From the IMG/VR virus record IMGVR_UViG_2563366923_000005: DNA of 16,693 bases. One strand, 5' to 3'. The position numbers and the translations under genes were made by a program. Positions 1 to 15,786 of the stretch are shown one piece after another (position 1 is the stretch's first letter; each line of letters opens with the position of its first letter). This stretch comes from a virus (lineage: Duplodnaviria; Heunggongvirae; Uroviricota; Caudoviricetes). The notes under the pieces are model-generated. The model worked only from the letters and a program-made list of their open reading frames with translations, was not told the origin of the DNA and did not search any database.

Positions 1-309
1 TTAGTACTCAGGAAGGTTTTCTAAGTTATCCTTGGATGTACCATTAGGTCTAGTAGTAATGTAATCAGTACCGTTGACACGGTCCTTAACCACTTTTTGA
101 CCTTTCTTCCACTTACCGTCATCACCTTTGAAAATGGTGTAAAAGGTATAGCCGCTATCGATTTTATTCACTACCCACTGCCGTGTTTCTGATGTCCCTT
201 CTCCAACAGTATCGCCATTATCGACATGCACATACACATGGGTAATGTGAGTGTGTTTATCGTTATATCGGACTTTAGAAATAAGGTAATCAGCCCATTT
301 ATCAGTCAT
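1..309 (-). CDS. Small hypothetical protein, DUF3892-like by recollection; probable island cargo
   Basis: Complete 102-aa ORF (ATG at 307-309, TAA at 1-3). About 35% GC in a sampled 60 nt, versus GC-rich head genes. Contains an HITHV motif. Function unknown. Confidence 0.45.
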   Translation of the reverse strand: MTDKWADYLISKVRYNDKHTHITHVYVHVDNGDTVGEGTSETRQWVVNKIDSGYTFYTIFKGDDGKWKKGQKVVKDRVNGTDYITTRPNGTSKDNLENLPEY

Positions 310-459
310 ATTTCACCAGAAGTTTGAACAGGAAAAGCCCTGCAATACATTTATAAACAACAAAACAGACTCTTCCTATTCCACGACAGCAATGTAGTGA
401 TCTAGAGCAATTTTATATTCCTGATAACCTCAAGATAATTCTTCCTTTACGCTTTATGC

Positions 460-2121
460 TCAAATCCCATTAAATAAAGCCAGTCGCTCTTTGTGACTGT
501 CGCTCATATCGAAAGCAAAATCTTCGTGTTCTGCCTGGAATGTGCCGAACGCCATGAGTGCAGAAACCGCCGGGTCTATCTTGTTGGAGGATTTCTTTTT
601 GTTGGGTTTGATATTGGCGTTGGCGTCGGACTCCATCACCACGTTACCAATCGCCCAAGCCAGAACCGGATCGCCACGATGGCGCACCACCTTGCGGTTA
701 ACAAAAACCTCAAAAGATTTCGCTACCGGACTGAATTTCAGATAGGTTTGCGGGAACGGCTCCACATCGAGGCCGGCCCCCTGTAACTGGGTTCGCAAGT
801 GAGTGGCGTTCCACGTATCAAAGCCCACCAGCCGGATATTGAATGTTTCAGCATCGCGCAGGATATCGTCACGGATGCGGTCATAGTCGATACAGTCGCC
901 GGGGGTGGTTCGTATCCAGCCCGCTTTTACCCACTGGCGATAGATGGCGCGGTTTTTGTTAGCAACGTTAAGTAGCTGCGCTTCGGGCAGATAGTGCCGA
1001 GTAAGAAGCCTGATCTCGCGTTCAAACGGGAAAGCGTAACTCACGCTGGTAATATCGCTGGTTGAGGACAGGTCAAATCCGGCGTAACACTCCATCCCGA
1101 CCAGATCTTCTTCGGCATAATCGAGTGCACAGGCATCCCATGCCCCGGCACCCATCCACGGTGTAGAACCCTGACACCAGATATTGAAACGCTTGGTCAG
1201 CATCTCCACCCATTGCGACGGTATACCCCGCGCTTTTTGGATGGTGGATTCCAGCTTCGCCGCGTCAACGGACACATGCAGGTTAGGGTTGGCCTTGATC
1301 CACATTTCAGGCTGCTCAACCTCGCTTTCGTCGTCCAGCTCGTAGATCAGGACAAACAGCGAATCGTTGCTCTCTTCCCCGGCCAGAATCTGACAACAGT
1401 AGTCGTAATGCTGTTTACAGGCTGAGACAACGTTACTCCCGGCGGTCGTTATGGCGAACAAAATAGCCTCAGGACGTGCGCCCATACCCAGCTCAAGGGC
1501 GGAATAAACGCCGTTATCCGGGTGAAGGTGGTACTCATCGACAATCGCTAGGCTGGGGTTAGTCCCTTCAATGGTGGACGCTTTCGCCGCCAGCGGCTTT
1601 AGCAGGCTGTTGCTCTTCGGGAAAATGACTTTATGCGCCTGAATATTTACGCGCTTTTTCAGCGGTTTTGACAACAGGCACATCTGGCGGGCATCGTCGA
1701 ACACGATTCGGGCCTGATCCCGGCTCACCGCCGCCGTATAGATATCCTGCTGGCCCTTCTCCATTACCAGAAACCAGTTAGCCAGCATGGCGGCCACGGT
1801 GGATTTGGCATTCTTGCGCGGCACCTCAATAAAGGCGCTGCTGTACTTACGGCGGCCTGTCTCTCTGACTTTAAAGCCCAGCAGGTTAGCAAAGGCGAAC
1901 TGCTGCCACGGTTCCAGATCGATTGGCTGGCCCCGAAGCGGGCCTTTGACGTGAGGACAGAGCCGCGAGAACGCAATAAACCGCTCTACGGTCGCCGTAT
2001 CGAACTCATATCGGGGGTCATTCAGGTCTGAAAAGTACCTTTCCACGGCCTGTTTTACGCGCTTACAGGCCGGAATTTCGCCCGTTTTTATCGCATTTGC
2101 GTACTCATTCCAGACGGTCAA
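460..2121 (-). CDS. terL: Phage terminase large subunit
   Basis: 553-aa ORF with a P-loop-like segment (EVPRKNAKST) and typical length. The only possible start is TTG at 2119-2121, since an in-frame stop lies at 2143-2145 with no ATG or GTG between. It is preceded by GGAAGAGGAGGA and overlaps the terS 3' end by 17 nt. Confidence 0.9.
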   Translation of the reverse strand: MTVWNEYANAIKTGEIPACKRVKQAVERYFSDLNDPRYEFDTATVERFIAFSRLCPHVKGPLRGQPIDLEPWQQFAFANLLGFKVRETGRRKYSSAFIEVPRKNAKSTVAAMLANWFLVMEKGQQDIYTAAVSRDQARIVFDDARQMCLLSKPLKKRVNIQAHKVIFPKSNSLLKPLAAKASTIEGTNPSLAIVDEYHLHPDNGVYSALELGMGARPEAILFAITTAGSNVVSACKQHYDYCCQILAGEESNDSLFVLIYELDDESEVEQPEMWIKANPNLHVSVDAAKLESTIQKARGIPSQWVEMLTKRFNIWCQGSTPWMGAGAWDACALDYAEEDLVGMECYAGFDLSSTSDITSVSYAFPFEREIRLLTRHYLPEAQLLNVANKNRAIYRQWVKAGWIRTTPGDCIDYDRIRDDILRDAETFNIRLVGFDTWNATHLRTQLQGAGLDVEPFPQTYLKFSPVAKSFEVFVNRKVVRHRGDPVLAWAIGNVVMESDANANIKPNKKKSSNKIDPAVSALMAFGTFQAEHEDFAFDMSDSHKERLALFNGI

Positions 2122-2461
2122 GCTCGTCCTCCTCTTCCGTTTCTACCGGGTTACGGCGGCGGCTTACCGGATCAAAGCCCAGCAGCGACGACATTTTAAT
2201 CATGATTTTTTCAGCATCGGCCTTTGCACTCAGTGCAGGATTTCGGCTCTCGCCCCCCTGGCTGTTAACAATGCTGAACCCACGGCTGGCAAGGTCTTCC
2301 ACTGCTTTGCGGTACATCGAATAGTTGACGCAAAAAAGCTCAAGGTTGTTCCAGTCGGCGGGTGTCAGATCGCCACGCTCGGCCAGTTGCTTCGCTTTCG
2401 CTTTCCACTGCTGCGCGGCTAACTCATCAAGGTAAGCTGGCGGTTTTGGTGGTCTTGCCAT
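2105..2461 (-). CDS. terS: Phage terminase small subunit (P27-family-like)
   Basis: 118-aa product starting MARPPKPP (ATG at 2459-2461), with a pattern typical of P27-type small terminases (NPALSAKADAEKIM, FDPVSRRR). The ORF-track extension up to 2629 is G-rich and judged spurious. Confidence 0.8.
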   Translation of the reverse strand: MARPPKPPAYLDELAAQQWKAKAKQLAERGDLTPADWNNLELFCVNYSMYRKAVEDLASRGFSIVNSQGGESRNPALSAKADAEKIMIKMSSLLGFDPVSRRRNPVETEEEDELDRLE

Positions 2462-2736
2462 AAAAATTTCTCGTTTCCATCGCGTTTTATTTTCAAAAAA
2501 ATCACCGTGCGTAAAAATTTGAGGGGGCGGGCGGTGCCTGGCACCTTGAGGTTTGTCCTGAAAACCTCCCCCACCCCGTCCATGCGGCCTGTCAGCGGTT
2601 GCGGAAGCATTCCCGCAACTCCCGTTCACGCTCGCTCATACGCTGCACAGGCTGGCGCTCATTGCGTCTGCTTCGCCCCTGCATGAAGCCATCACGGCAG
2701 CGCATCAATGATCGGTACAGATTCACCACGTCTTTC
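2462..2736. other. Candidate cos / packaging-site region between HNH gene and terS
   Basis: 275-bp non-coding gap in the position where HK97-type genomes carry cos. It holds a GC-rich block at 2521-2578 with a perfect palindrome GGTGCC-T-GGCACC (2533-2545) and an inverted repeat GAGGTTT-N6-AAACCTC (2548-2568), flanked by a G-rich tract (2521-2534) and a C-rich tract (2565-2578). Confidence 0.35.
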
Positions 2737-3180
2737 TCATTCATTTCTGCCCTCATACATCCAGTCATTGCGATGGGCTGCACGCTCTTCCTGCTCTCGG
2801 TACAGCCCTGCCTTACGGTTCGCTTTGGTGATGGGGTCTTGCTGCGTGGTCTTCTGGTTATGATGCATCTGGCATAACGGCTGGTGATTCCACTCAGGCC
2901 AGAACAGAACATCATCACCGCCGTCGATAGGGATGATGTGATCGACAATCTTTGCAGGAACGTAGAGGCCCAACTTCTGGCACTCGACACATAGCGGCTG
3001 ACGTTTCAGATACTGAGCGCGGTACTTCTCCCATGATGCTGAGTAACCACGGGCGCGACGGTGGCCGCGTCTGGCATCTTCCGCCCGCCAGGCTTCGCGC
3101 TTGTGCTCATCGCACTTACCAGACTTCACCCGCTTATTGCATCCCGGCTCAGTGCACCGGCGCATTGGTTGCCACGGCAT
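2737..3180 (-). CDS. HNH endonuclease (terminase-associated)
   Basis: 147 aa from ATG at 3178-3180, overlapping the connector stop (ATGA). Cys clusters (CTEPGC, CDEH, CVECQ) and an HNH-like core (LCQMHHNQK). Position between connector and terS is typical of HK97-like packaging modules. Confidence 0.85.
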   Translation of the reverse strand: MPWQPMRRCTEPGCNKRVKSGKCDEHKREAWRAEDARRGHRRARGYSASWEKYRAQYLKRQPLCVECQKLGLYVPAKIVDHIIPIDGGDDVLFWPEWNHQPLCQMHHNQKTTQQDPITKANRKAGLYREQEERAAHRNDWMYEGRNE

Positions 3181-3479
3181 CAGTACACCCCCACATCGCG
3201 ATACACAGACCACAATGCAGAGATAGCAAGGGGGATCTCTTTCGCCTCCACATCACTAATCATCGTGCGGTATTCGTACAGTTGGGAAACGTACATAAGG
3301 CATCCGATCTTGATGGCAGGAGTAAATTCCAGGCCAGCACCGAACCGTTTACCGATATGCTTCTGGCAGACTTCCAGTGACGCTTCGATGTATGCCTGAA
3401 TCATTGCATCTTCATAGGAATCATCGTTATCGATGCGACAGTGAAGTTTTGCCTCATCAAGCCCAATTAGTTCACTCAC
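3180..3479 (-). CDS. gp6-like head-tail connector / DNA packaging protein
   Basis: 99 aa with GTG start at 3477-3479 preceded by GGGAGGG, and an in-frame stop directly upstream. N-terminus LDEAKLHCRIDNDDSYEDAMIQAYIEAS fits the gp6-like connector pattern. Confidence 0.75.
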   Translation of the reverse strand: MSELIGLDEAKLHCRIDNDDSYEDAMIQAYIEASLEVCQKHIGKRFGAGLEFTPAIKIGCLMYVSQLYEYRTMISDVEAKEIPLAISALWSVYRDVGVY

Positions 3480-3513
3480 GGCTTAAGCCCTCCCTTACAA
3501 AGCAACTCCAGCC

Positions 3514-4755
3514 TCATGACGCATCCTCCTTATTCTCAGAACCGGTACTGACCTTCACTTCCTGCTTCCATGCCTGGCTGTATTCGTCGCCCCCTTCACG
3601 CGGCGGCATCCCTTCGCGTTCGCGGGCTTCGTTCGGGTTCATGATCCCGTTCTTGATACCGCGCTCATAAGTTGCGTAACGTTCGGTTGGAGTGGCTCGA
3701 AGAAGATCGGCAGAGTCGAACTCCACCTGATAACGAATTCCGGGTACAGGCGATGCCACCAGCAACGCGGATTTAATCTGCTGCTCAAAGTTCGCCAGCC
3801 ACGGACGCATCGTCATGGTGAGAAATGCGCGGCTCGCCTCACTAAAGTTGCTGTAGGTGCTGTTGCTGTATTCCTGCAGGAAGATGGGGGACACGTTGAA
3901 CATGCGGGCAATGTCTTCAATGGAGAAGCGCCGGGAGGCCAGCCACTCAGCATCCTGATTGCTCATGCCAAGCTGCTTATAGTCCATGCCACCTTCAAGG
4001 ATCGGTGTTTTACCGGCATTTCTGGCACCTTTGTAGCGCTCAAGCGCGTCCAGCGCCTGTTTACCCTTCACACTATCGAGCCATTCAGCAGTAGTGACTA
4101 CGCCCGCCGCCATCATGCCATCTTTCATAATGCTGGCGCCGTGGCGCTGCTGGGCCAGACCTAACCCCAGCGCCTCACGGCAGATGGTGATCGGCGAGCG
4201 CCCCAGAAAACCATCATCGGTCGAGTAACGCAGGTGCAGAATCTCTTCCTGCAGGTAGGTGCGCACTGCCCCGGTAAACGGTTCAGTAACGGTGTATTTG
4301 TACTTATGCTGGCCGATACGCTCAGGAACAACCGCCCCCGGCGCATACGGATGCAGGGATTGCGGCTGGCCGTCACGGCCCCACTGGATCACCGCATAGG
4401 CGTTACCATTCAGCAGGCAATGACGCATCATCGTGCGCTTGAACTGGTAAGGCGTCTGACAGTCGTTCGGTTGCTCGTTAAGGAGAAAATCCACCGGGTG
4501 ATTGCTTAGCCACTCCCGCGCTTCTCGGCCGTTATCGTTGCGCACGCGGTAGAGGTAGCAGGGCATTGTTGCCACTGCCTCGCTGATAACTGATATGGCG
4601 TTCATGACCGCCGGCAGAGATTCCGCAGTACCGGCAGACACATATTCGCCTGATCCGGTATTTGGAATCCCTGCCATCGCCAGAAACTCATCAATCGTCA
4701 TGCTGCGCTGTTCGGATGGCTCAGATTTACGGCCAAAAGGCCAGATATTCCACAT
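3514..4755 (-). CDS. Phage portal protein (HK97 family)
   Basis: 413-aa ORF directly downstream of the protease gene with a 1-nt gap. Size and sequence character are typical of HK97-type portals. Confidence 0.88.
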   Translation of the reverse strand: MWNIWPFGRKSEPSEQRSMTIDEFLAMAGIPNTGSGEYVSAGTAESLPAVMNAISVISEAVATMPCYLYRVRNDNGREAREWLSNHPVDFLLNEQPNDCQTPYQFKRTMMRHCLLNGNAYAVIQWGRDGQPQSLHPYAPGAVVPERIGQHKYKYTVTEPFTGAVRTYLQEEILHLRYSTDDGFLGRSPITICREALGLGLAQQRHGASIMKDGMMAAGVVTTAEWLDSVKGKQALDALERYKGARNAGKTPILEGGMDYKQLGMSNQDAEWLASRRFSIEDIARMFNVSPIFLQEYSNSTYSNFSEASRAFLTMTMRPWLANFEQQIKSALLVASPVPGIRYQVEFDSADLLRATPTERYATYERGIKNGIMNPNEAREREGMPPREGGDEYSQAWKQEVKVSTGSENKEDAS

Positions 4756-4756
4756 A

Positions 4757-5317
4757 TCACAGCCCCGCTAAGTCAGCCCAGCGTCGGCGGTTATCACCAG
4801 CACGGCGCAGTTCAGGATGTTGGGAGAACAGAGAACGGTGCGCAATTTCCACGCCGGACTCAGGGTAAGCAGGCATAGAAGTAACGGTGATCTCCCGCAG
4901 CTCGGCAGCGGTAACAGTGCGAATATACGGTGTAGGAGTAATATCCCAGGACTCTTTCAGCGCACGGAATCCGAAGCTCATGCCGGAAATGTCTCCACGC
5001 TCCACCAGCTCCAGCACATCATTGCCAAGTTGGGTGTTTGGCGGGGTCAGCTCGAAACGCAGCCCGGTATCATCTTCGGACAACACCAGCGTGCCGGATT
5101 TGGTACGCCCCAGCAGTTGGGTATAGTTATGCTCGTACAGTGCACGCACATCGCTACCGGATGCCAGGCTGTCTTTAAACGCCCCCGGCGCAAACTGCTC
5201 GCGGAACTCATCCCAGATCACCTCTGACAGGCTGTTCCAGCGCACGGCATAGCCCACCAGCTTTTTGTTGCTGGCGCTCAGTTCGGAGGTACGGATTTCA
5301 AAATCGATTGTTTTCAT
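4757..5317 (-). CDS. Prohead maturation protease (HK97 family)
   Basis: 186 aa; the segment LVGYAVRWNSLSEVIWDEFREQFAPGAF matches the conserved N-terminal pattern of HK97 prohead proteases. GGAG lies 8 nt upstream of the ATG. Confidence 0.88.
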   Translation of the reverse strand: MKTIDFEIRTSELSASNKKLVGYAVRWNSLSEVIWDEFREQFAPGAFKDSLASGSDVRALYEHNYTQLLGRTKSGTLVLSEDDTGLRFELTPPNTQLGNDVLELVERGDISGMSFGFRALKESWDITPTPYIRTVTAAELREITVTSMPAYPESGVEIAHRSLFSQHPELRRAGDNRRRWADLAGL

Positions 5318-5340
5318 TGTTGGACTCCACAGAGGGCAAA

Positions 5341-5358
5341 AAGGGGCCGAAGCCCCTT
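5341..5358 (-). terminator. Intrinsic terminator-like hairpin between capsid and protease genes (probable partial terminator)
   Basis: On the minus strand: AAGGGGC-UUCG-GCCCCUU followed by UUUGCCC, so a 7-bp GC-rich stem with a UUCG tetraloop and a run of 5 U. It sits in the 51-nt gap after the capsid stop. Confidence 0.45.
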
Positions 5359-5368
5359 AAACGTCAGA

Positions 5369-6535
5369 TCAGGAACCGGAACCGGAAAGCTCAAGCACCT
5401 TGATGGCGTTGGAGTCCACCACACCACCGCCTAGGTATTTATCGGTGTGCACCTTGTAGAAACCAGGTTCGGTGATGTTGTCGGGGCGGGTACGCACGCC
5501 AGTGGTGTGATCCACGATGAAGTAACCGCGCTTAAAGTCGCCGACTGCCAGGAACGCTTCACCCGCAGCCGCATCAGGCATGGTTTCCAGGTATTGAACC
5601 GGACGGCCAAGGAGGGTATCGGGAGAGTCAGCGACGAGACGATCACGCCAGATGTAATCCCCGTTGCCGTTTTTCAGCTTTTGCAGCGTAGCGGCAGTGT
5701 TGGAGTTCATCACCCATACGGCATTTTTGCGGTATTTGGCTTTCAGCTTATACAGCAGGTCGATAAGACCATCAGAGGAAACGGCAGCAGCCTCCATCTT
5801 CTCCAGCGTGCCGAACGGACGGGTTTTATCGCTGGTGGCCGCACGCGGATAGGACAGGAACCCTTTGGATTTTTTATCACCGTCGCCGTTCACAAAGTCG
5901 GTTTCTTCGGTAGCAGTGAAGGTGTCGGTAATTTCGGAAGACAGCCAGCCCAGAATATCAACTTCGGAGAAGTCGAGAATTTCCTGAGTGGTTTTCGGGT
6001 AGGCGTAGATCGGGTTGAGTTTGATATCAACGCGCTCCATCTTCGGTGTGCTGGTTTCGGTACGCGCTTCGCCTTCGGTGCCGCGCTTAACGGTAGTGCC
6101 GCCCACTGACACCAGCTTCTGGTATTCGTTGGTTTTGGTGGTCTTCACCGTGGCGATGGAGCGCATAACGCTGTCATCCTGCAACTGGCGCATGATCTCT
6201 TTGTCCAGCTCAGGGATAACGGTATAGCCGCCGTCAGCCTGCACTAACGTGGAGAGAGAGCGGGTATCGCCGGTCATGATGTAGTGGCGCAGCTCATCGT
6301 TGCTTACACCTTTACCTTCAACAGAAGTACCAGGCAAATTGCGCTGATCGTCGGCGACGGCCTCAAGGCGGGTAATTTCAACTTCAAGCGCATCAGCCTG
6401 GGCGCGGAGTTCGTCGAACTGCTTTCCCTCTTCATCGTTCAGGCTTCGCTTTTCGCTGTCAGCTTTTTCCAGCATGGAACGCATCTGGGTTTTGAGTGCG
6501 GTTTTCTGCTGGCGTAATTCAAGTAATTTCTTCAT
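5369..6535 (-). CDS. Major capsid protein (HK97 fold) with N-terminal delta (scaffold-like) domain
   Basis: 388 aa from ATG at 6533-6535 (MKKLLELRQQK). The N-terminal ~100 aa are coiled-coil rich, like an HK97 delta domain, followed by a capsid-like body. The track extension to 6652 is judged spurious. Confidence 0.9.
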   Translation of the reverse strand: MKKLLELRQQKTALKTQMRSMLEKADSEKRSLNDEEGKQFDELRAQADALEVEITRLEAVADDQRNLPGTSVEGKGVSNDELRHYIMTGDTRSLSTLVQADGGYTVIPELDKEIMRQLQDDSVMRSIATVKTTKTNEYQKLVSVGGTTVKRGTEGEARTETSTPKMERVDIKLNPIYAYPKTTQEILDFSEVDILGWLSSEITDTFTATEETDFVNGDGDKKSKGFLSYPRAATSDKTRPFGTLEKMEAAAVSSDGLIDLLYKLKAKYRKNAVWVMNSNTAATLQKLKNGNGDYIWRDRLVADSPDTLLGRPVQYLETMPDAAAGEAFLAVGDFKRGYFIVDHTTGVRTRPDNITEPGFYKVHTDKYLGGGVVDSNAIKVLELSGSGS

Positions 6536-6563
6536 GGAGTGGTTTCCGTAACAATTAATGTTG

Positions 6564-6656
6564 AGACGTGAAACCTGCGCTTGGAGGGATGTCCACCTGG
6601 AAAGGAAACCGTCGCAGAACGGGAAAAAACCAGGTGGACAGTGGCGGCTCACGTCT
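6564..6656. promoter_or_regulatory. Nested inverted repeats upstream of the capsid gene
   Basis: Perfect 10-bp inverted repeat GTCCACCTGG (6591-6600) / CCAGGTGGAC (6630-6639) around a 29-nt A-rich spacer, nested inside a 7-bp inverted repeat AGACGTG (6564-6570) / CACGTCT (6650-6656). It lies 27-124 nt upstream of the capsid ATG on the minus strand. Confidence 0.35.
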
Positions 6657-6797: not shown

Positions 6798-7310
6798 ATG
6801 GACTTCGATTTTGATGATATGGCATACCCGGATATTTTTTTAATTTCCGGCGAGGAGTTTAAAGGAAGCCGGAACACAGGAAAAAATCAGGTAGATATCC
6901 CGTTTACTGACGAACCGCAAATTGAATTGGGCGATATTCTGATTCAGAAGATTGGAAGCCGTGAGTTAAGCCTTAAAGTTGTCGATCTTTCAATATCAAA
7001 GAATGGAACGCTGAACGTGGGTACAACGCATCCTCACTTACTGACGTTATCCGTAGAGAATCTTTCTTCCAACGCACACAGGACAGCAAAGAGTATGAAT
7101 ACTTTTAATATTGGCTCCGTCAGTGGTGAGCAAGTTCAAATAGGTGAAAGTAATCATATGCTGGTGAATATCAGTATTACTGAACTTGTCGAGAAAGTGG
7201 CTAACTCTGGCGATCCACAGGCTAAATCAATGTTGAAACAGTTACTGGAAAATAGCACCGTTGCCAGTATCGTTGGCGCTGGCGCTTCTGCGCTATTAGG
7301 TCTGCTTTAA
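6798..7310 (+). CDS. Hypothetical protein with C-terminal hydrophobic Gly/Ala-rich tail; accessory gene on the opposite strand
   Basis: 170-aa ORF with GGGGGA 4 nt before the ATG. C-terminus TVASIVGAGASALLGLL looks like a single tail anchor or glycine-zipper segment. About 43% GC in a sampled 60 nt. Only sizeable plus-strand gene inside the island besides the RHH gene. Confidence 0.6.
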   Translation: MDFDFDDMAYPDIFLISGEEFKGSRNTGKNQVDIPFTDEPQIELGDILIQKIGSRELSLKVVDLSISKNGTLNVGTTHPHLLTLSVENLSSNAHRTAKSMNTFNIGSVSGEQVQIGESNHMLVNISITELVEKVANSGDPQAKSMLKQLLENSTVASIVGAGASALLGLL

Positions 7311-7357: not shown

Positions 7358-7693
7358 TTATTCTTTATCCAGCCCCCACTGATAGAAAGCCCAGCTTGCC
7401 GTTGATTGTGCGCTATGGATAGCGTTCTCAAGGCCAGAGGTTGGGTACGACAAATCAGCCGCCATCCTCTGTAGAAGATCGAGGTAAGCGCTGGCGTCTT
7501 TCGACAACTCTTGCTCCCCTTCTTCCAGCCCAGACTGGTACGATTCCAGATCAAGCTTTTCAGAAGTGACAAACGCACTCAGAGCCAGAAAATCCGTCAC
7601 TGTAATCTCATCTTTATTTGAAAGCTCATCAACGGCGCTGTAGAGAAACTTAAGATCGCTCATATGCCCGTTATCTTTGCCAATCAGTTTCAT
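7358..7693 (-). CDS. Hypothetical acidic protein (accessory / possible interference or immunity function)
   Basis: 111-aa ORF with AGAGGT 6 nt upstream of the ATG at 7691-7693. Acidic and probably helical, with no recognisable catalytic motif. Lies immediately downstream of the iteron origin. Confidence 0.6.
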   Translation of the reverse strand: MKLIGKDNGHMSDLKFLYSAVDELSNKDEITVTDFLALSAFVTSEKLDLESYQSGLEEGEQELSKDASAYLDLLQRMAADLSYPTSGLENAIHSAQSTASWAFYQWGLDKE

Positions 7694-8034: not shown

Positions 8035-10170
8035 TTATTCTTCTCCATCTTCCGCAACCTGGTGAAGCACATAAACGTTGATTTGACGCCCATCAATACG
8101 CGGGGATTTCTGCTGGTATCCACGCCCGCTGGACGGCTCAGAAAGCAAGCCAGCAGCGGCAAGCACGCGGGCAAACTGCCTGGCGTTAAAGCCCTGAGCT
8201 ATCTCCTTCTCAAACGTTGCGGGGAACGTATAGAACACCAGCGGCGAATCATCATGGCTGCTTTTGCGCTTTCGATACCCGGCCAGATCGCGAATCGGCA
8301 TACTGGACGGATCATAGGGCAACGGTGCAAAGCGGCTTAAACCGTAGGCATTCAGGAACGCCTCGCACTGCTCGATGATCTGCTGGTGCTCTTTGTTACC
8401 CGTGCCGAACTCTTTCACCCAGGCGTTAAAGCTATGCTGGATAGCGTCACGGCTGGCCTGTTCACTCCATCCGGTGATTGATGCACCAGTTACCAGCGCG
8501 GCTTCGAGGATTGCAAAGCGTTCGGCCACGCGGTGTACCTGCTCACCGTAATCCGCCGGGATGAGGCCGCGCCAGCGCGTTTGCGCGTCACGCACCGCCT
8601 GTTTAGCCTCCTGCTGGTTAGCCGCCAGCCATTTAACCCACTCACGCCCCGCCGCCCCGTGGTTATCAATCCAGGCTTCTTTCAGTGCGTCAGCATGAGC
8701 CTTGCCGTTTGGCAGACCGTTAAAGGCCGTCGATTTCTCCATAGGGATGTTGAGCAAGCGCACCAGTTGGCCCGCTTTCACTTTCAGCCCACCAGCAGCC
8801 AGGAAGGTTTCAATATCCATTTCCCCGGTGCTGATCGCCACAGTGCGCCAGCGTTTAAGCTCCCGATTGCCGCCCTCTTTGGCTCCCTGCAACTTTCCGG
8901 CACCGTTAAACAGGGTGTAAGCAGACGTGGCAACATCTTTGGCACTGCTGCCCTGTCCTACCTCATCAAGCGGTAACAGGCTGTCGTTATGCGCCTCCGC
9001 TTCGTTTGCTATGCCAAGCGCAGTACCGTACCAGGTAAGCCGCAACGCATCAGGCTCACCCCACAGGCTGCTCGCAATATTGGCGGTAGTGGTCTTACCG
9101 GCGCTCGACTGCTCGAACAAATGGACGCCGAAACCATCAGCACCCACCAGGCCAATAAGCGGCGCGGATAATGCCGCTGCCACGCCCAGCATCATGGACG
9201 GATTGCCCCCGGCCAGACGGGCGACGGAATCCCGCCAGGTGGCAGCAGTACCAGCAATGGCATACCCGGAAGATGCAGCGCTGCGACCGTTAAAGAGAAT
9301 GGGCGTCTCTGGATCACCAATCACTTCACCATCAGGCATGATATATGCGCCATGATGCCAGCCAGTGGTATGGGTGATAATCCATTCCCGATCAGTGCCG
9401 CTTTGCTGCAACCAGTCGGCCAGAATCGCCCGGAAGGTGCTTTTAGTGGTCACATTCACCCCACCAGCTTTAAGTGAGCGCCAGCCGTCGCGCTCACCGA
9501 TATCAGCACAGGGGATCGCCCTGGTAATATCTTCATGGCCACGCGGCGAACGCCAGCGCAAAACAAGATAGCGCTCTGCCCCGTCACTACCGGAGCCGAC
9601 CACCTCAAGAGGCGAGCACAGCCACGTTTCGTTATTGATGATCTCGCCACTATCCTTGTCCACCTTTGGCGTGATCCAGTACAGGCCATCGCTCCGGCTC
9701 TCCACGCGGGGTTTGAGTTCATCGCCCGGTTCAGGCTTTGGCTCCCGTTTTTTTACAGGCAGGTTCACCACAATGCTTTCCCCGCGTTCGGCCTCTTCTT
9801 TGAGACGTGGAAGCCTGCCCGTCCAGTCCTCCTTCGGCTGAGGCTCAAACATGCCATTAAACAGCCTGGCCTCTTTCACATCCGCCAGCGCCAGTTTGGT
9901 TGCGATAGTGCTTATCTGCATTTCGGAAAGTTCGCCAGCGCGGATCACACGAACACTGCGACGGCCGTTATCAACAATGTTTAACCGTTCCAGTTCCGCA
10001 AGTTGCCTTTTACCCAGATAAACAGGCGGTACATCATCCCATGCCCTTTTACCTTCGCTCTCGATCCAGTGCTGCACATGTGAATAGGCATCTTCACCCG
10101 CAAAGATAATCGCCTCTGTAAATTTATCTTTCGGCAGGAATTTAATATTCGGGGCATTCTTCATCTTCAT
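8035..10170 (-). CDS. Replication initiator / primase-helicase (DUF927-type P-loop NTPase)
   Basis: 711 aa with Walker A motif FEQSSAGKTT. Size and position (last gene of the operon, next to the iterons) match satellite or PICI Rep proteins. AAGGTG RBS; start overlaps the upstream gene's stop (ATGA). Confidence 0.85.
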   Translation of the reverse strand: MKMKNAPNIKFLPKDKFTEAIIFAGEDAYSHVQHWIESEGKRAWDDVPPVYLGKRQLAELERLNIVDNGRRSVRVIRAGELSEMQISTIATKLALADVKEARLFNGMFEPQPKEDWTGRLPRLKEEAERGESIVVNLPVKKREPKPEPGDELKPRVESRSDGLYWITPKVDKDSGEIINNETWLCSPLEVVGSGSDGAERYLVLRWRSPRGHEDITRAIPCADIGERDGWRSLKAGGVNVTTKSTFRAILADWLQQSGTDREWIITHTTGWHHGAYIMPDGEVIGDPETPILFNGRSAASSGYAIAGTAATWRDSVARLAGGNPSMMLGVAAALSAPLIGLVGADGFGVHLFEQSSAGKTTTANIASSLWGEPDALRLTWYGTALGIANEAEAHNDSLLPLDEVGQGSSAKDVATSAYTLFNGAGKLQGAKEGGNRELKRWRTVAISTGEMDIETFLAAGGLKVKAGQLVRLLNIPMEKSTAFNGLPNGKAHADALKEAWIDNHGAAGREWVKWLAANQQEAKQAVRDAQTRWRGLIPADYGEQVHRVAERFAILEAALVTGASITGWSEQASRDAIQHSFNAWVKEFGTGNKEHQQIIEQCEAFLNAYGLSRFAPLPYDPSSMPIRDLAGYRKRKSSHDDSPLVFYTFPATFEKEIAQGFNARQFARVLAAAGLLSEPSSGRGYQQKSPRIDGRQINVYVLHQVAEDGEE

Positions 10171-13274: not shown

Positions 13275-14216
13275 TTAAAACTTAAAGTGCCTACTAATGT
13301 ATGAGGTAATTGTGTCAACGCTCTTGACCGGGCATTGTCCGTCAGGAAATAAGTGCACTCTGTCGGAAAGTTCTCTGGCCCATGCTGAGAAATTGTAGCT
13401 CCCATCTTTTTTCAAGCACTTTTCATTGAAAATATCAGAATTTGTTTCTTTGAATTTTATTGCAGCACTTAAAATTAATAGTTCATTTCGTGCATGTTTT
13501 TCTTTTGCACTTTCTGAGCGTTTATTAATACTATTTTTTGAATCAGAGTCTAAATCAGGTCGTTCAATATCATTGAGCATTGGCAGCTTATCGAAATCAA
13601 GGCCGCTTTCCATAAGCCGTTTAATATCATAATTAGTAACCCATAAATCATCATACCCGGCTTCAAACTCATAAGGGTCGAAATTAAACCTCTTGCCATT
13701 AGCCTGATCGATAAAAGGTTGGGCTGGCAGAATCTGAATTACTGGAGTTTCACCGCCTGTGAGGCACGGGAAAAATCCGGGGAAAAAATCCTTCACAGGT
13801 AAAGATGACTCAAACTGATCGGGCATTACCCGCCACAGACCTAATGCAAAGCCATATCCGACAAGGAACCCTTTACTTTCTTGTTCCGTAAAGATGTCTG
13901 AACCAGATAATAGTTTATCAGGTTCAAAATAACGGCCATTAGTAAATTCAATAAAAGAGTGATTCGTTATCGCGCGGGTTTGCCCTGACATAGAATTAAA
14001 AGTACGAGGAAAATATAGTGATGAATACCAATCCTTTACATCATTAAAATCTTCACGAAGAAGGATTCGGCAGTGAAACCTTTTCAGCATCATGCTTATT
14101 TCGATTTTATTTTCAATAGCAAGGTTGATCAAATCTGACGGTTCAACCCCCAGAAATGATGCACCTCTGGACAATCTACAATATGAAAATGGAATCTTTA
14201 TTTCTTTTTCTGCCAT
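13275..14216 (-). CDS. Hypothetical protein, AT-rich cargo gene between int and alpA (candidate defence / accessory function)
   Basis: 313-aa ORF with GAGGG RBS. 27% GC in a sampled 60 nt, far below the head genes. No family recognised by eye. Contains YDDLWVTNYDIK, a D-x8-D-x-K arrangement weakly reminiscent of a PD-(D/E)xK core. Confidence 0.65.
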   Translation of the reverse strand: MAEKEIKIPFSYCRLSRGASFLGVEPSDLINLAIENKIEISMMLKRFHCRILLREDFNDVKDWYSSLYFPRTFNSMSGQTRAITNHSFIEFTNGRYFEPDKLLSGSDIFTEQESKGFLVGYGFALGLWRVMPDQFESSLPVKDFFPGFFPCLTGGETPVIQILPAQPFIDQANGKRFNFDPYEFEAGYDDLWVTNYDIKRLMESGLDFDKLPMLNDIERPDLDSDSKNSINKRSESAKEKHARNELLILSAAIKFKETNSDIFNEKCLKKDGSYNFSAWARELSDRVHLFPDGQCPVKSVDTITSYISRHFKF

Positions 14217-14308: not shown

Positions 14309-15535
14309 TTAATCTCTATTCGCTACAGTTAACAGAACCACATTTTGATGATTACCCGCAAGAAGTTCTAAGCGATCATACCACTTATTCAGCGCGTCCA
14401 GTTTTTCCGGCAGATACAGACTACGGTTATAAATCGCCATAACCCCTGGCATTGAGTGGCCCAGCAACTGTTCAACAACGTGCGGAGCTATACCCATATT
14501 ATTCATATGCGTTGCAAGCGTTCGCCGTAGATCATGCAATGTCCACGGTTCAGAATGCCCCAGTTTTTTATAAACACTACGGCCCCACTGGCTAACCGCT
14601 TCGCTATTCTTCACAACCCCAAGAAGGTAGCCGGATGATTTTGTTTCATCGTGGAGCATTTCAATAAATGAACGCATCGCCTCTGGAACTGGACGCACAA
14701 TCTTTTCACCGCCTTTACTATGCGCTTTTGGTACTGTCCACACCCACGCCTCCATATCCCATTCGGCCCACTCTGACAATCTGGCCTCCTGGGTGCGGCA
14801 ACCAAACAAAGTGGTGATCCTGAGTAAGTTTGTGTAGTAAGGCAGAAAAACATCGCCGGACGATATAGCAGCCCACAATCCCCCAACCTCTTTATCTTTC
14901 AATACCCGATCTTTTTTCGCCTGCTTTTTACCAACATCGGGAATACTCAAATCTTCAAGGGCGGTACTGACGGCGTAACGGCGAACGCGGCAGAATTTCA
15001 GAGCCTGCTTACACATCTGGAATACATAACCCGCAGCAACTGGCGTTTTCTTTTTCATTCTGTCGAAGCAGTCAAGCCAGTATCGGGTTTCGCAGTCAGC
15101 GAGCGCCATTTTCCCAATGTAAGGGTAAATATGTTTGCGTAGCTCCGCTTTGTGCCGCTCAACGTTCGCACGATTTTCTTCCGCATATTCGCGTATCCAG
15201 TATTCGATAGCTTCCTGCACCGTGACCGGTTTAAGCGTTTCCTGAGTAGTTAGCGCCAATTGGTGCTTTGGGTCTTTACCAGAGGCCAACCACTGACGAC
15301 ATTTATCACGCGAGGAACGGGCCTCTTTGAGACTCATATCAGGGTAGCGCCCCAGAGTCAGCCGATGCAGCTTCTGCCCGTCGAGTCGGTAAGTAAACAC
15401 CCAGCTAATGCCACCAGCTTTCGTTACCTTAGCACTCAACCCGGCACCATCAGCATAAAACTCAATCTTACTGGCCGGGATGCCATGTAATCCCTTTAAC
15501 TTCCTGTCGCTCAGTTTGTTAAGTTCGCCAGCCAT
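14309..15535 (-). CDS. int: Tyrosine site-specific integrase (P4-type)
   Basis: 408 aa; C-terminal catalytic region with WTLHDLRRTLATHM, LLGHS and AIYNRS (R, H-x-x-R, Y). Lies at the element terminus next to the chromosomal junction. Confidence 0.9.
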   Translation of the reverse strand: MAGELNKLSDRKLKGLHGIPASKIEFYADGAGLSAKVTKAGGISWVFTYRLDGQKLHRLTLGRYPDMSLKEARSSRDKCRQWLASGKDPKHQLALTTQETLKPVTVQEAIEYWIREYAEENRANVERHKAELRKHIYPYIGKMALADCETRYWLDCFDRMKKKTPVAAGYVFQMCKQALKFCRVRRYAVSTALEDLSIPDVGKKQAKKDRVLKDKEVGGLWAAISSGDVFLPYYTNLLRITTLFGCRTQEARLSEWAEWDMEAWVWTVPKAHSKGGEKIVRPVPEAMRSFIEMLHDETKSSGYLLGVVKNSEAVSQWGRSVYKKLGHSEPWTLHDLRRTLATHMNNMGIAPHVVEQLLGHSMPGVMAIYNRSLYLPEKLDALNKWYDRLELLAGNHQNVVLLTVANRD

Positions 15536-15557
15536 AGACCACCACCCAGCCCAAAGT

Positions 15558-15578
15558 GTTTATACAAATGTTTATACA
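15558..15578. repeat. Tandem direct repeat GTTTATACA x2 (possible integrase arm-type sites / int promoter region)
   Basis: GTTTATACA at 15558-15566 and 15570-15578 (12-bp period), 23 bp upstream of the int start codon, within AT-rich DNA between int and the junction. Confidence 0.3.
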
Positions 15579-15708: not shown

Positions 15709-15723
15709 TACGGCATGAACTAA
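15709..15723 (+). other. fis: Displaced 3' end of fis (last 4 codons + stop); probable att core / right junction
   Basis: TAC GGC ATG AAC TAA encodes Y-G-M-N-stop, the Fis C-terminus as I recall it. The frame is closed just upstream by TGA at 15703-15705. yhdJ starts 85 nt downstream. Confidence 0.5.
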
Positions 15724-15750
15724 TTCAGGTTAGCTAAATGCTTGATTAAA

Positions 15751-15786
15751 AAGGCGCTACTCGGCATGGGGAAGCGCCTTTTTTAT
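15751..15786. terminator. Bidirectional intrinsic terminator (probably the native fis operon terminator)
   Basis: AAGGCGCT / AGCGCCTT 8-bp stem (15751-15758 and 15773-15780) with a 14-nt loop, A-run upstream and a T-run of 6 downstream. Confidence 0.6.

Follow-up and report, generated by a model that had tools for sequence, protein, structure and literature searches.

The stretch of DNA analyzed here, henceforth referred to as the window, is the 16,693-nucleotide IMG/VR record IMGVR_UViG_2563366923_000005, which was identified by its gene content as a capsid-forming phage-inducible chromosomal island (cf-PICI). The gene under study encodes a small protein of the DUF3892 family and lies at the window's left end, behind the large terminase gene terL, where the following features were located:

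1–309, minus strand: coding sequence of the DUF3892 protein (102 amino acids), with the ATG start codon at 309–307 and the TAA stop codon at 3–1, the first triplet of the window.
310–459, strand not applicable: spacer of 150 bp between terL and the DUF3892 gene, with a guanine-plus-cytosine (GC) content of 35.3%, the upstream part of the proposed cargo cassette.
460–2121, minus strand: terL, the last packaging gene of the cf-PICI, with TerL_ATPase and TerL_nuclease domains (RefSeq annotation).

The small DUF3892-like gene proposed in an initial annotation of this DNA was confirmed. The ATG-started open reading frame (ORF) matched Pfam family PF13031 (DUF3892) over residues 10–100 with 46.8 bits (E 4.2e-12), above the curated gathering threshold of 22.3 bits, and the 150-bp gap behind the last packaging gene was found exactly as described. 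The protein already carries the RefSeq name “DUF3892 domain-containing protein” (WP_001547818.1) and also matches phrog_32719, a group of unknown function (E 7e-60); Pfam, PHROG and the literature agree that DUF3892 is a family with no assigned function. Added to the existing label in this work are the island boundary, the definition of a cargo slot, the anatomy of the cassette, and its mobility and solo retention. The region had been described as AT-rich with about 35% GC. AT-richness was upheld, but the figure is true of the gap only; the ORF has 39.8% GC and positions 1–459 together have 38.3%, compared to 54.0% for terL, 54.7% for the head and packaging module (460–6652) and 50.4% for the whole island.

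Assignment of the window to the cf-PICIs was based on an integrase gene, a replication module, a block running from capsid to terL, the lack of tail and lysis genes and a distance of approximately 15 kb between attachment (att) repeats; all of these were present in the sequence. The window encodes a tyrosine integrase (int, 14309–15535), an AlpA-like helix-turn-helix (HTH) protein and a KilAC antirepressor, and a DUF927 protein (8035–10170) occupies the replication-gene position. Head and packaging genes, as judged by Pfam domains and annotation, are arranged in the order capsid, protease, portal, connector, HNH, terS and terL, in agreement with the order given for proteobacterial cf-PICIs in passages of the cf-PICI preprint. 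An island in E. coli KFu015 (record L002), inserted between fis and yhdJ, is 99.9% identical across the whole window, and its annotation contains no tail or lysis genes.

The KFu015 island was used to extend the window leftward, with window positions obtained by subtracting 2500 from L002 positions. A 78-nt att direct repeat, its copies 99% identical, was located at L002 2329–2406 and 18209–18286 with a spacing of 15,880 bp. The repeat is made up of the final 15 nt of fis and the terminator of that gene, and fis therefore remains intact after integration of the island. On the integrase side, the window contains the following elements:

15557–15578, plus strand: two TGTTTATACA arm-type repeats adjoining int (repeat family D2).
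15709–15786, plus strand: integrase-side copy of the att repeat, comprising the 3' end of fis and the fis terminator; its position in the window was confirmed.

The partner att copy lies 95–172 nt to the left of window position 1. A second TGTTTATACA pair is located 69–91 nt to the left of the window (L002 2410–2432), between att and the terminator of the DUF3892 gene; two exact matches were found against 0.01 expected by chance, and the pair is kept in sister islands. Island DNA to the left of the window amounts to 94 bp only, consisting of a terminator hairpin and the two TGTTTATACA repeats, and is followed by chromosomal fis. The island is thus approximately 15.9 kb in length and is integrated at the 3' end of fis. 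Since the att boundary lies 94 bp past its stop codon, the DUF3892 gene lies inside the island and is its last gene. This result overturned the expectation that the island continues beyond the window with more cargo possibly following, and ruled out a boundary between 310 and 459 that would have made the gene chromosomal. An Rfam scan of the cassette and att region returned sub-threshold matches only, over the fis terminator and att.

The initial annotation had placed the gene in a distal accessory slot, and comparison with sister islands at the same fis site supported this placement. In a megablast search with positions 1–2200, homology to sister islands with a terL 91–95% identical began exactly at position 460, and alignment of the att-side ends showed that homology resumes at the terminator hairpin, approximately 20 nt past the DUF3892 stop codon. 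The slot therefore extends from the stop codon of terL to the terminator at the island end. Sister islands at the fis site carry other genes between these limits:

ET670 and PE15: a 63-residue ORF.
21AR0133 and OZ040669: a Lambda_tail_I-like gene and a 62-residue ORF.
SCU-125: a tail-I-like gene, a TAC-like gene, a lipoprotein gene, a hypothetical gene and an AbiJ abortive-infection gene.

The last of these genes was identified as AbiJ by Abi_C (E 6e-22) and by the AbiJ profile of PADLOC (E 5.9e-22). The SCU-125 gene occupies the same place as the DUF3892 gene, between terL and the fis-side att, and belongs to a recognized phage-defense family; it differs in having no sequence similarity to the window protein, in lying on the opposite strand and in being accompanied by four other genes. 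The 62–63-residue ORFs (L106 444–635, L107 3517–3708, L003 2193–2381 and L109 1092–1280) are the final gene before the terminator in fis-site cf-PICIs that have no DUF3892 gene, either solo or behind the tail-I-like gene. Two of them were tested against Pfam without a match. They may represent the default occupant of the slot.

Temperate phages are known to carry morons, and satellite cargo hotspots, such as those of P4-like elements and the accessory regions of PICIs, carry immune systems. The moron concept is said to go back to Hendrix and Juhala, and satellite cargo was reportedly described by Rousset et al. and by Fillol-Salom et al. in 2022. The DUF3892 gene resembles morons as an extra transcription unit at the edge of an element, with a predicted promoter and terminator. 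It is present or absent between close relatives with sharp breakpoints, and its base composition (38.3% GC for positions 1–459) deviates from that of the head module and of the island. It is unlike the immune cargo of satellites in being a single 102-residue protein of unknown activity and not a recognized defense system. Passages of the cf-PICI preprint make no mention of a cargo slot behind terL.

Of 5,426 complete E. coli genomes searched, 18 carried the gene and the remaining 5,408 yielded no copy. Eleven of the 18 carriers hold the fis-site island at 100% identity, four hold copies in cf-PICIs at other sites with approximately 89% nucleotide identity (two were examined, at clpS and thiM), and three hold truncated copies, the one examined (Ec1120) adjoining hpt and a bacteriophage exclusion (BREX) island. 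Beyond E. coli, the cassette moves between unrelated elements. In Klebsiella, an 89%-identical protein is encoded by the last gene of an island or prophage at hpt, where the upstream neighbor is divergent and where the element also carries variable SEFIR/TIR, DUF4238 and insertion sequence cargo. In Pantoea, a 75% copy is carried by an integrative element, at a distance of one gene from a ThsB-type TIR protein (PADLOC E 1.5e-116). Pectobacterium brasiliense carries a 78% copy with the same terminator hairpin, solo beside fis in three assemblies. A second att copy was sought there as an explanation of the solo cassette and none was found, nor is there an island; the copy looks like the remnant of an island that retained only this cassette. 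Morganella and Klebsiella records also hold cf-PICIs with a DUF3892 gene. Separately, the Morganella morganii “plasmid” p46903_1 (L024, NZ_CP070523.1, 24.7 kb), which has been typed as a non-mobilizable plasmid, contains a cf-PICI with a DUF3892 gene together with the chromosomal genes fis-dusB-prmA-accC-accB-aroQ, and is matched by the DUF3892 protein at two places. The record resembles a piece of chromosome, excised or wrongly assembled, rather than a true plasmid.

Among viral sequences, relatives were present on 27 of 2.9 million IMG/VR contigs, mostly cf-PICIs. Seventeen of these were close, and in 15 of the 17 a cf-PICI terL lies directly upstream and the gene is at the end of a 14–18 kb contig. 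In one IMG/VR island (L126), terL is 96.7% identical to that of the window and the DUF3892 protein only 73%, from which it follows that DUF3892 alleles are exchanged independently of terL. The gene is nearly absent from phages: a single one of 50,697 phage records gave a match, OR851399.1, “Salmonella phage S.Kent 1-2-1”, a fragment of 1,931 bp encoding a protein 100% identical to that of the window. The match suggests that Salmonella Kentucky also carries this cassette and probably shares the island end, which would fit intergeneric spread of the cf-PICI.

These data bear directly on a possible role in the satellite life cycle, in which the protein would act late with packaging, for example in terminase or HNH cutting, head stabilization, tail choice or interference with helper packaging. 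Such a role draws support from several facts: the gene immediately follows terL on its strand and is not separated from it by a terminator; this position recurs in cf-PICIs integrated at fis, clpS and thiM as well as in those of Morganella and Klebsiella; terL precedes the gene in 15 of the 17 close IMG/VR relatives; and the first 2.2 kb (terL and DUF3892) is 100% identical among E. coli islands with different replication modules. It is nonetheless very unlikely. The gene is missing from sister islands with a terL 91–95% identical and from nearly all complete E. coli genomes, it occurs outside any packaging context in Klebsiella, Pectobacterium and Pantoea, it has no homologues among the 50,697 phage records in phages sharing the HNH-terS-terL system, and its base composition and promoter footprint set it apart as a separate unit. 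Conservation together with the packaging module was not seen among the cf-PICIs and cassette copies compared. The further alternative of a conserved head-completion or packaging factor is contradicted by the same rarity in E. coli and in phage records and by the close copies outside packaging modules.

The substitution pattern indicates that the DUF3892 gene is under purifying selection. The ratio of nonsynonymous to synonymous divergence (dN/dS) was 0.12, 0.06 and 0.29 against three orthologues (range 0.06–0.29); in comparisons with Klebsiella, Pectobacterium and Pantoea, synonymous sites were saturated and the proportion of nonsynonymous differences (pN) was 0.06–0.14. A decaying or non-functional passenger ORF could be suspected from the family's lack of an assigned function and from the truncated copies in three E. 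coli genomes, but such strong purifying selection, an ORF that is unbroken in each of the eight cassette copies under comparison and in relatives across many phyla, a confident fold prediction and conserved regulatory elements leave this explanation with hardly any likelihood. Taken together, distribution, mobility and selection exclude a pseudogene and speak strongly against any part in packaging or head completion.

Expression signals were examined by alignment of eight cassette copies from E. coli (two lineages), Klebsiella (two), Morganella, Cedecea, Pectobacterium and Pantoea. The candidate elements upstream of the gene are as follows:

373–378, minus strand: TAGGAA as candidate -35 hexamer, with a 17-nt spacer before the -10 hexamer; T.G.AA columns invariant in the eight copies.
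350–355, minus strand: candidate -10 hexamer TATAAA; TATA columns invariant in the eight copies, which represent six genomic contexts.
328–343, minus strand: stem-loop GCAGGGCTTTTCCTGT with six predicted pairs, where the transcript is predicted to start.
313–317, minus strand: GGTGA, a probable Shine-Dalgarno sequence located 3 nt ahead of the ATG, as read from the DNA.

The columns of a TGCAG motif were likewise invariant across the eight copies. At the Shine-Dalgarno position, GGTGA or GGTGG was present in six of the eight copies, with GGAGGA in Pectobacterium and GGATA in Pantoea. The evidence for the stem-loop is modest: it pairs in register in six of seven sequences, with one compensatory G-C to C-G change in Pantoea, and the Pectobacterium stem GCAGAA/TTCTGC is intact with its register shifted by one base. 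Approximately 90 nt at the gene-proximal end of 310–459 are common to E. coli and the Klebsiella hpt-site copy. Because the upstream neighbor in Klebsiella is divergent, a promoter probably lies within this stretch. The approximately 70 nt before the ATG are nearly invariant between these two copies while 74% of the synonymous sites in the coding sequence differ, and the 5' region is therefore under constraint. From this phylogenetic footprint, the cassette is inferred to have its own sigma-70-like promoter. By eye, no LexA box (CTGT-N8-ACAG) was present in the conserved upstream block. A long hairpin in the 150-bp gap was considered and rejected, the 16-nt stem-loop being preferred, as it was no better than shuffled sequences (z = -1.1) and its 5' arm was not conserved in TUM9757.

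Downstream of the gene, an intrinsic-terminator-like hairpin of 12 pairs followed by a T-run was predicted 23–49 nt past the stop codon, and the predicted hairpin also follows the Klebsiella and Pectobacterium copies, giving the cassette the downstream terminator of a moron. The cassette would accordingly extend over window positions 1–459 and approximately 50 nt past the left edge, as a self-contained, single-gene, moron-type unit made up, in order, of a sigma-70-like promoter, a short 5' hairpin, a Shine-Dalgarno sequence, the 102-residue ORF and the island-end intrinsic terminator. No terminator-like site was found between terL and the DUF3892 gene, so the gene is probably also reached by read-through of the late operon after island induction; this route, like the cassette's own promoter, is predicted from the arrangement of signals.

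Profile search and structure prediction, both proposed with the initial annotation, upheld the family assignment. The PF13031 match was confirmed, and the AlphaFold2 model was confident, with a mean predicted local distance difference test score (pLDDT) of 92.8 and a predicted template modeling score (pTM) of 0.83. The predicted topology of three strands, a helix and three strands (E8-15, E22-30, E35-42, H43-51, E56-61, E67-78 and E81-85) was consistent with membership of PF13031. No solved structural relative of the model was found and the DUF3892 family has no solved structure; a search of the PDB with the protein and a 44-sequence profile returned spurious matches only (designed TIM barrels and WW domains). 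In the 44-sequence alignment, an N-terminal KWADYxISxVRY motif and a C-terminal DNLxxLPE[FY] motif were invariant or nearly so, and conserved aromatic and charged residues were W5, Y8, R14, Y15, R43 and W67. A profile search of 1.84 billion representatives gave 1,494 clusters (50% identity) at E <= 1e-3, nearly all of approximately 100 residues and mostly stand-alone, and in species-representative genomes the subfamily with these motifs was found in many bacterial phyla and in Archaea at 38–60% identity. Some distant relatives occur as tandem gene pairs (86 and 102 residues; L020–L022, metagenome contigs) or carry two to three DUF3892 repeats in one polypeptide (P0132, P0178), an arrangement that hints that the domain may work as a dimer or oligomer.

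No conserved partner gene was found among 80 diverse loci. The 118 immediate neighbors fell into 135 Pfam families, none of which was seen more than three times (DUF2188, three), and the protein therefore needs no conserved partner. Defense-type genes were encountered around DUF3892 copies or in the slot, namely AbiJ, BREX, ThsB and SEFIR/TIR, and one relative combines AbiJ_NTD5, a ThsB-like TIR domain and DUF3892 in a fusion protein, which also connects the family to the AbiJ found in the same slot of SCU-125. A Peptidase_M78 gene (IrrE/ImmA-type) was located upstream in 11 of the 80 distant loci, mostly on the opposite strand and with an HTH_3 or sigma-70-like gene. In three loci of Chloroflexota metagenome-assembled genomes (L082, L083 and L085; 4000–5850), M78 was accompanied by a sigma-70 region-2-like protein and a protein of approximately 145 residues, with no HTH repressor; such loci may encode a version of the CapH/CapP-type switch that uses sigma factor, anti-sigma factor and protease.

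DUF3892 operons have been associated with CapH/CapP, DNA-damage-responsive regulators of the cyclic-oligonucleotide-based antiphage signaling system (CBASS) and other defense systems (Lau et al., bioRxiv 10.1101/2022.04.27.489752), where a prediction for DUF3892 is credited to Burroughs & Aravind 2020. The proteins of these operons share with the window protein the domain family, a length of approximately 100 residues and the single-domain layout, and the KWADYxIS and DNLxxLPE[FY] motifs are common to the window protein and the M78/HTH-linked relatives found here. The M78 loci found here reproduce the reported association and imply that DUF3892 can by itself serve as the output under regulation. 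The window gene differs in being carried by a cf-PICI, with terL as its upstream neighbor and a candidate sigma-70-like promoter. A divergent HTH/M78 pair was not found upstream of it, terL being located there on the same strand, and no peptidase is named in the island gene annotations. A second preprint likened DUF3892 to the double-stranded RNA-binding domain (dsRBD) and ribosome hibernation factor (HPF) folds and, from this likeness, proposed a sensor of viral RNA or modified ribosomes (bioRxiv 10.1101/2025.01.14.632903).

Two other functions were weighed against these clues, and both appear improbable to a similar degree. In the first, the protein is an anti-defense factor that neutralizes host immunity, for example by sequestering a TIR- or CBASS-type signaling nucleotide or by blocking an effector, and thereby aids establishment of the island or its helper. 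A protein of approximately 100 residues with a single domain and no partner gene would suit this role, as would W5, Y8, R14, Y15, R43 and W67, which could build a ligand pocket, the relatives adjoining or fused to TIR proteins, and carriage at the edges of mobile elements. Anti-defense genes, however, concentrate in phages, from which the gene is nearly absent (1 of 50,697 records; 27 of 2.9 million IMG/VR contigs), whereas the family is widespread in the chromosomes of many bacterial phyla and of archaea, is retained solo in the Pectobacterium chromosome, and sits under DNA-damage-type HTH/M78 regulators like the output of a host system. In the second, the protein is a factor of host physiology or stress, such as a regulator of translation or RNA turnover, that hitch-hikes on mobile elements and has no role in phage conflict. 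The very broad range over Bacteria and Archaea, at 40–60% identity over 100 residues, suggests a universal target and is compatible with this idea, many housekeeping genes are found among the neighbors, the Pectobacterium copy is chromosomal and conserved, and M78/HTH regulators also govern non-defense DNA-damage regulons (IrrE/DdrO; bioRxiv 10.1101/2022.04.27.489752). Patchy and rare occurrence among the members of a species (in E. coli, 18 of 5,426 genomes), repeated carriage at mobile-element edges and in defense islands, fusion to a TIR effector and the AbiJ gene in the same slot of a sister island argue the other way.

The best explanation overall, and a probable one, is that the gene is a moron-type cargo cassette in the terminal slot of the cf-PICI, with a role in conflict favored. 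The structural part of this explanation is the firmest: the gene is very probably an autonomous accessory cassette, the last gene of the island and not part of its packaging module. A role in phage or mobile-element conflict is a serious candidate, although a tentative one. The product is a stand-alone DUF3892 domain with no part in capsid assembly or DNA packaging, and would be a small binder or sensor that might alter the outcome of infection by competing phages and so benefit the host and hence the resident island. More generally, and with less assurance, stand-alone DUF3892 proteins could be new single-gene effectors or sensors of phage conflict, with a fold unrepresented among solved structures. 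On that reading, cf-PICIs would shuffle DUF3892 alleles in the terminal slot to obtain either protection of the host or a bias between helper and rival phages, and action on a universal target, for instance the ribosome or RNA, would account for the 40–60% identity from Enterobacterales to Archaea. An RNA or ribosome target is, taken by itself, an unlikely conjecture for the window protein.

Several results weigh against this explanation. Association with defense genes is weak evidence for a 100-residue protein with very diverse neighbors; PADLOC-DB 2.0 gave no family for the window protein at E up to 0.1, and no experiments on any DUF3892 protein were found in the literature searched. The protein is neutral (pI 6.9), which is atypical for a nucleic-acid binder. 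A scan with a strict sigma-70 consensus reported no minus-strand promoter, the candidate -35 hexamer fitting three of six positions, and the terminator is a feature shared by island ends, including those of sister elements, and is not private to the cassette. DUF3892 also recurs after terL in several cf-PICI lineages with different att sites, including those of Morganella and Klebsiella, and in view of this recurrence the protein may have a satellite-specific role.

With approximately 1,500 clusters at 50% identity in Bacteria and Archaea and a predicted role in immunity, the DUF3892 family lacks an experimental study in the literature searched. The gene described here provides a tractable E. 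coli representative: a single gene of 309 bp with defined predicted regulatory elements on a mobilizable satellite, for which sister islands whose slot contains different cargo serve as natural isogenic controls. A slot for cargo behind terL in enterobacterial cf-PICIs is now defined and, with AbiJ occupying it in one lineage, can be mined for candidate conflict genes. For annotation, the island should be taken to end here and the gene treated as cargo and not as part of the packaging module.

Differences from sister islands were also observed elsewhere in the window. A “phage head closure protein” gene of approximately 336 bp separates connector from portal in sister islands (S163-2, L001 21476–21811; 21AR0133, L003 6009–6347) and is missing from the window, where a 34-bp gap (3480–3513) lies between connector (3180–3479) and portal (3514–4755). 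A defective island is not claimed on this basis, since cf-PICIs at the clpS and thiM sites are also devoid of the gene; its absence may be a normal variant and not a defect.

The integrase end of the island is a second variable cargo slot. A gene of 313 codons (13275–14216, minus strand) with 38.1% GC adjoins int there; it matches phrog_7144, of unknown function, with no Pfam or PADLOC match, and the sister island in 21AR0133 has a DUF6387 gene at this position. Between the capsid and replication modules, where local GC falls to 35–40%, lie two small genes with no assigned function, a gene on the opposite strand (6798–7310, plus strand; 170 residues, phrog_5789, 42% GC) and a second gene (7358–7693, minus strand; 111 residues, phrog_7232), and this region may be a third accessory region of the island.

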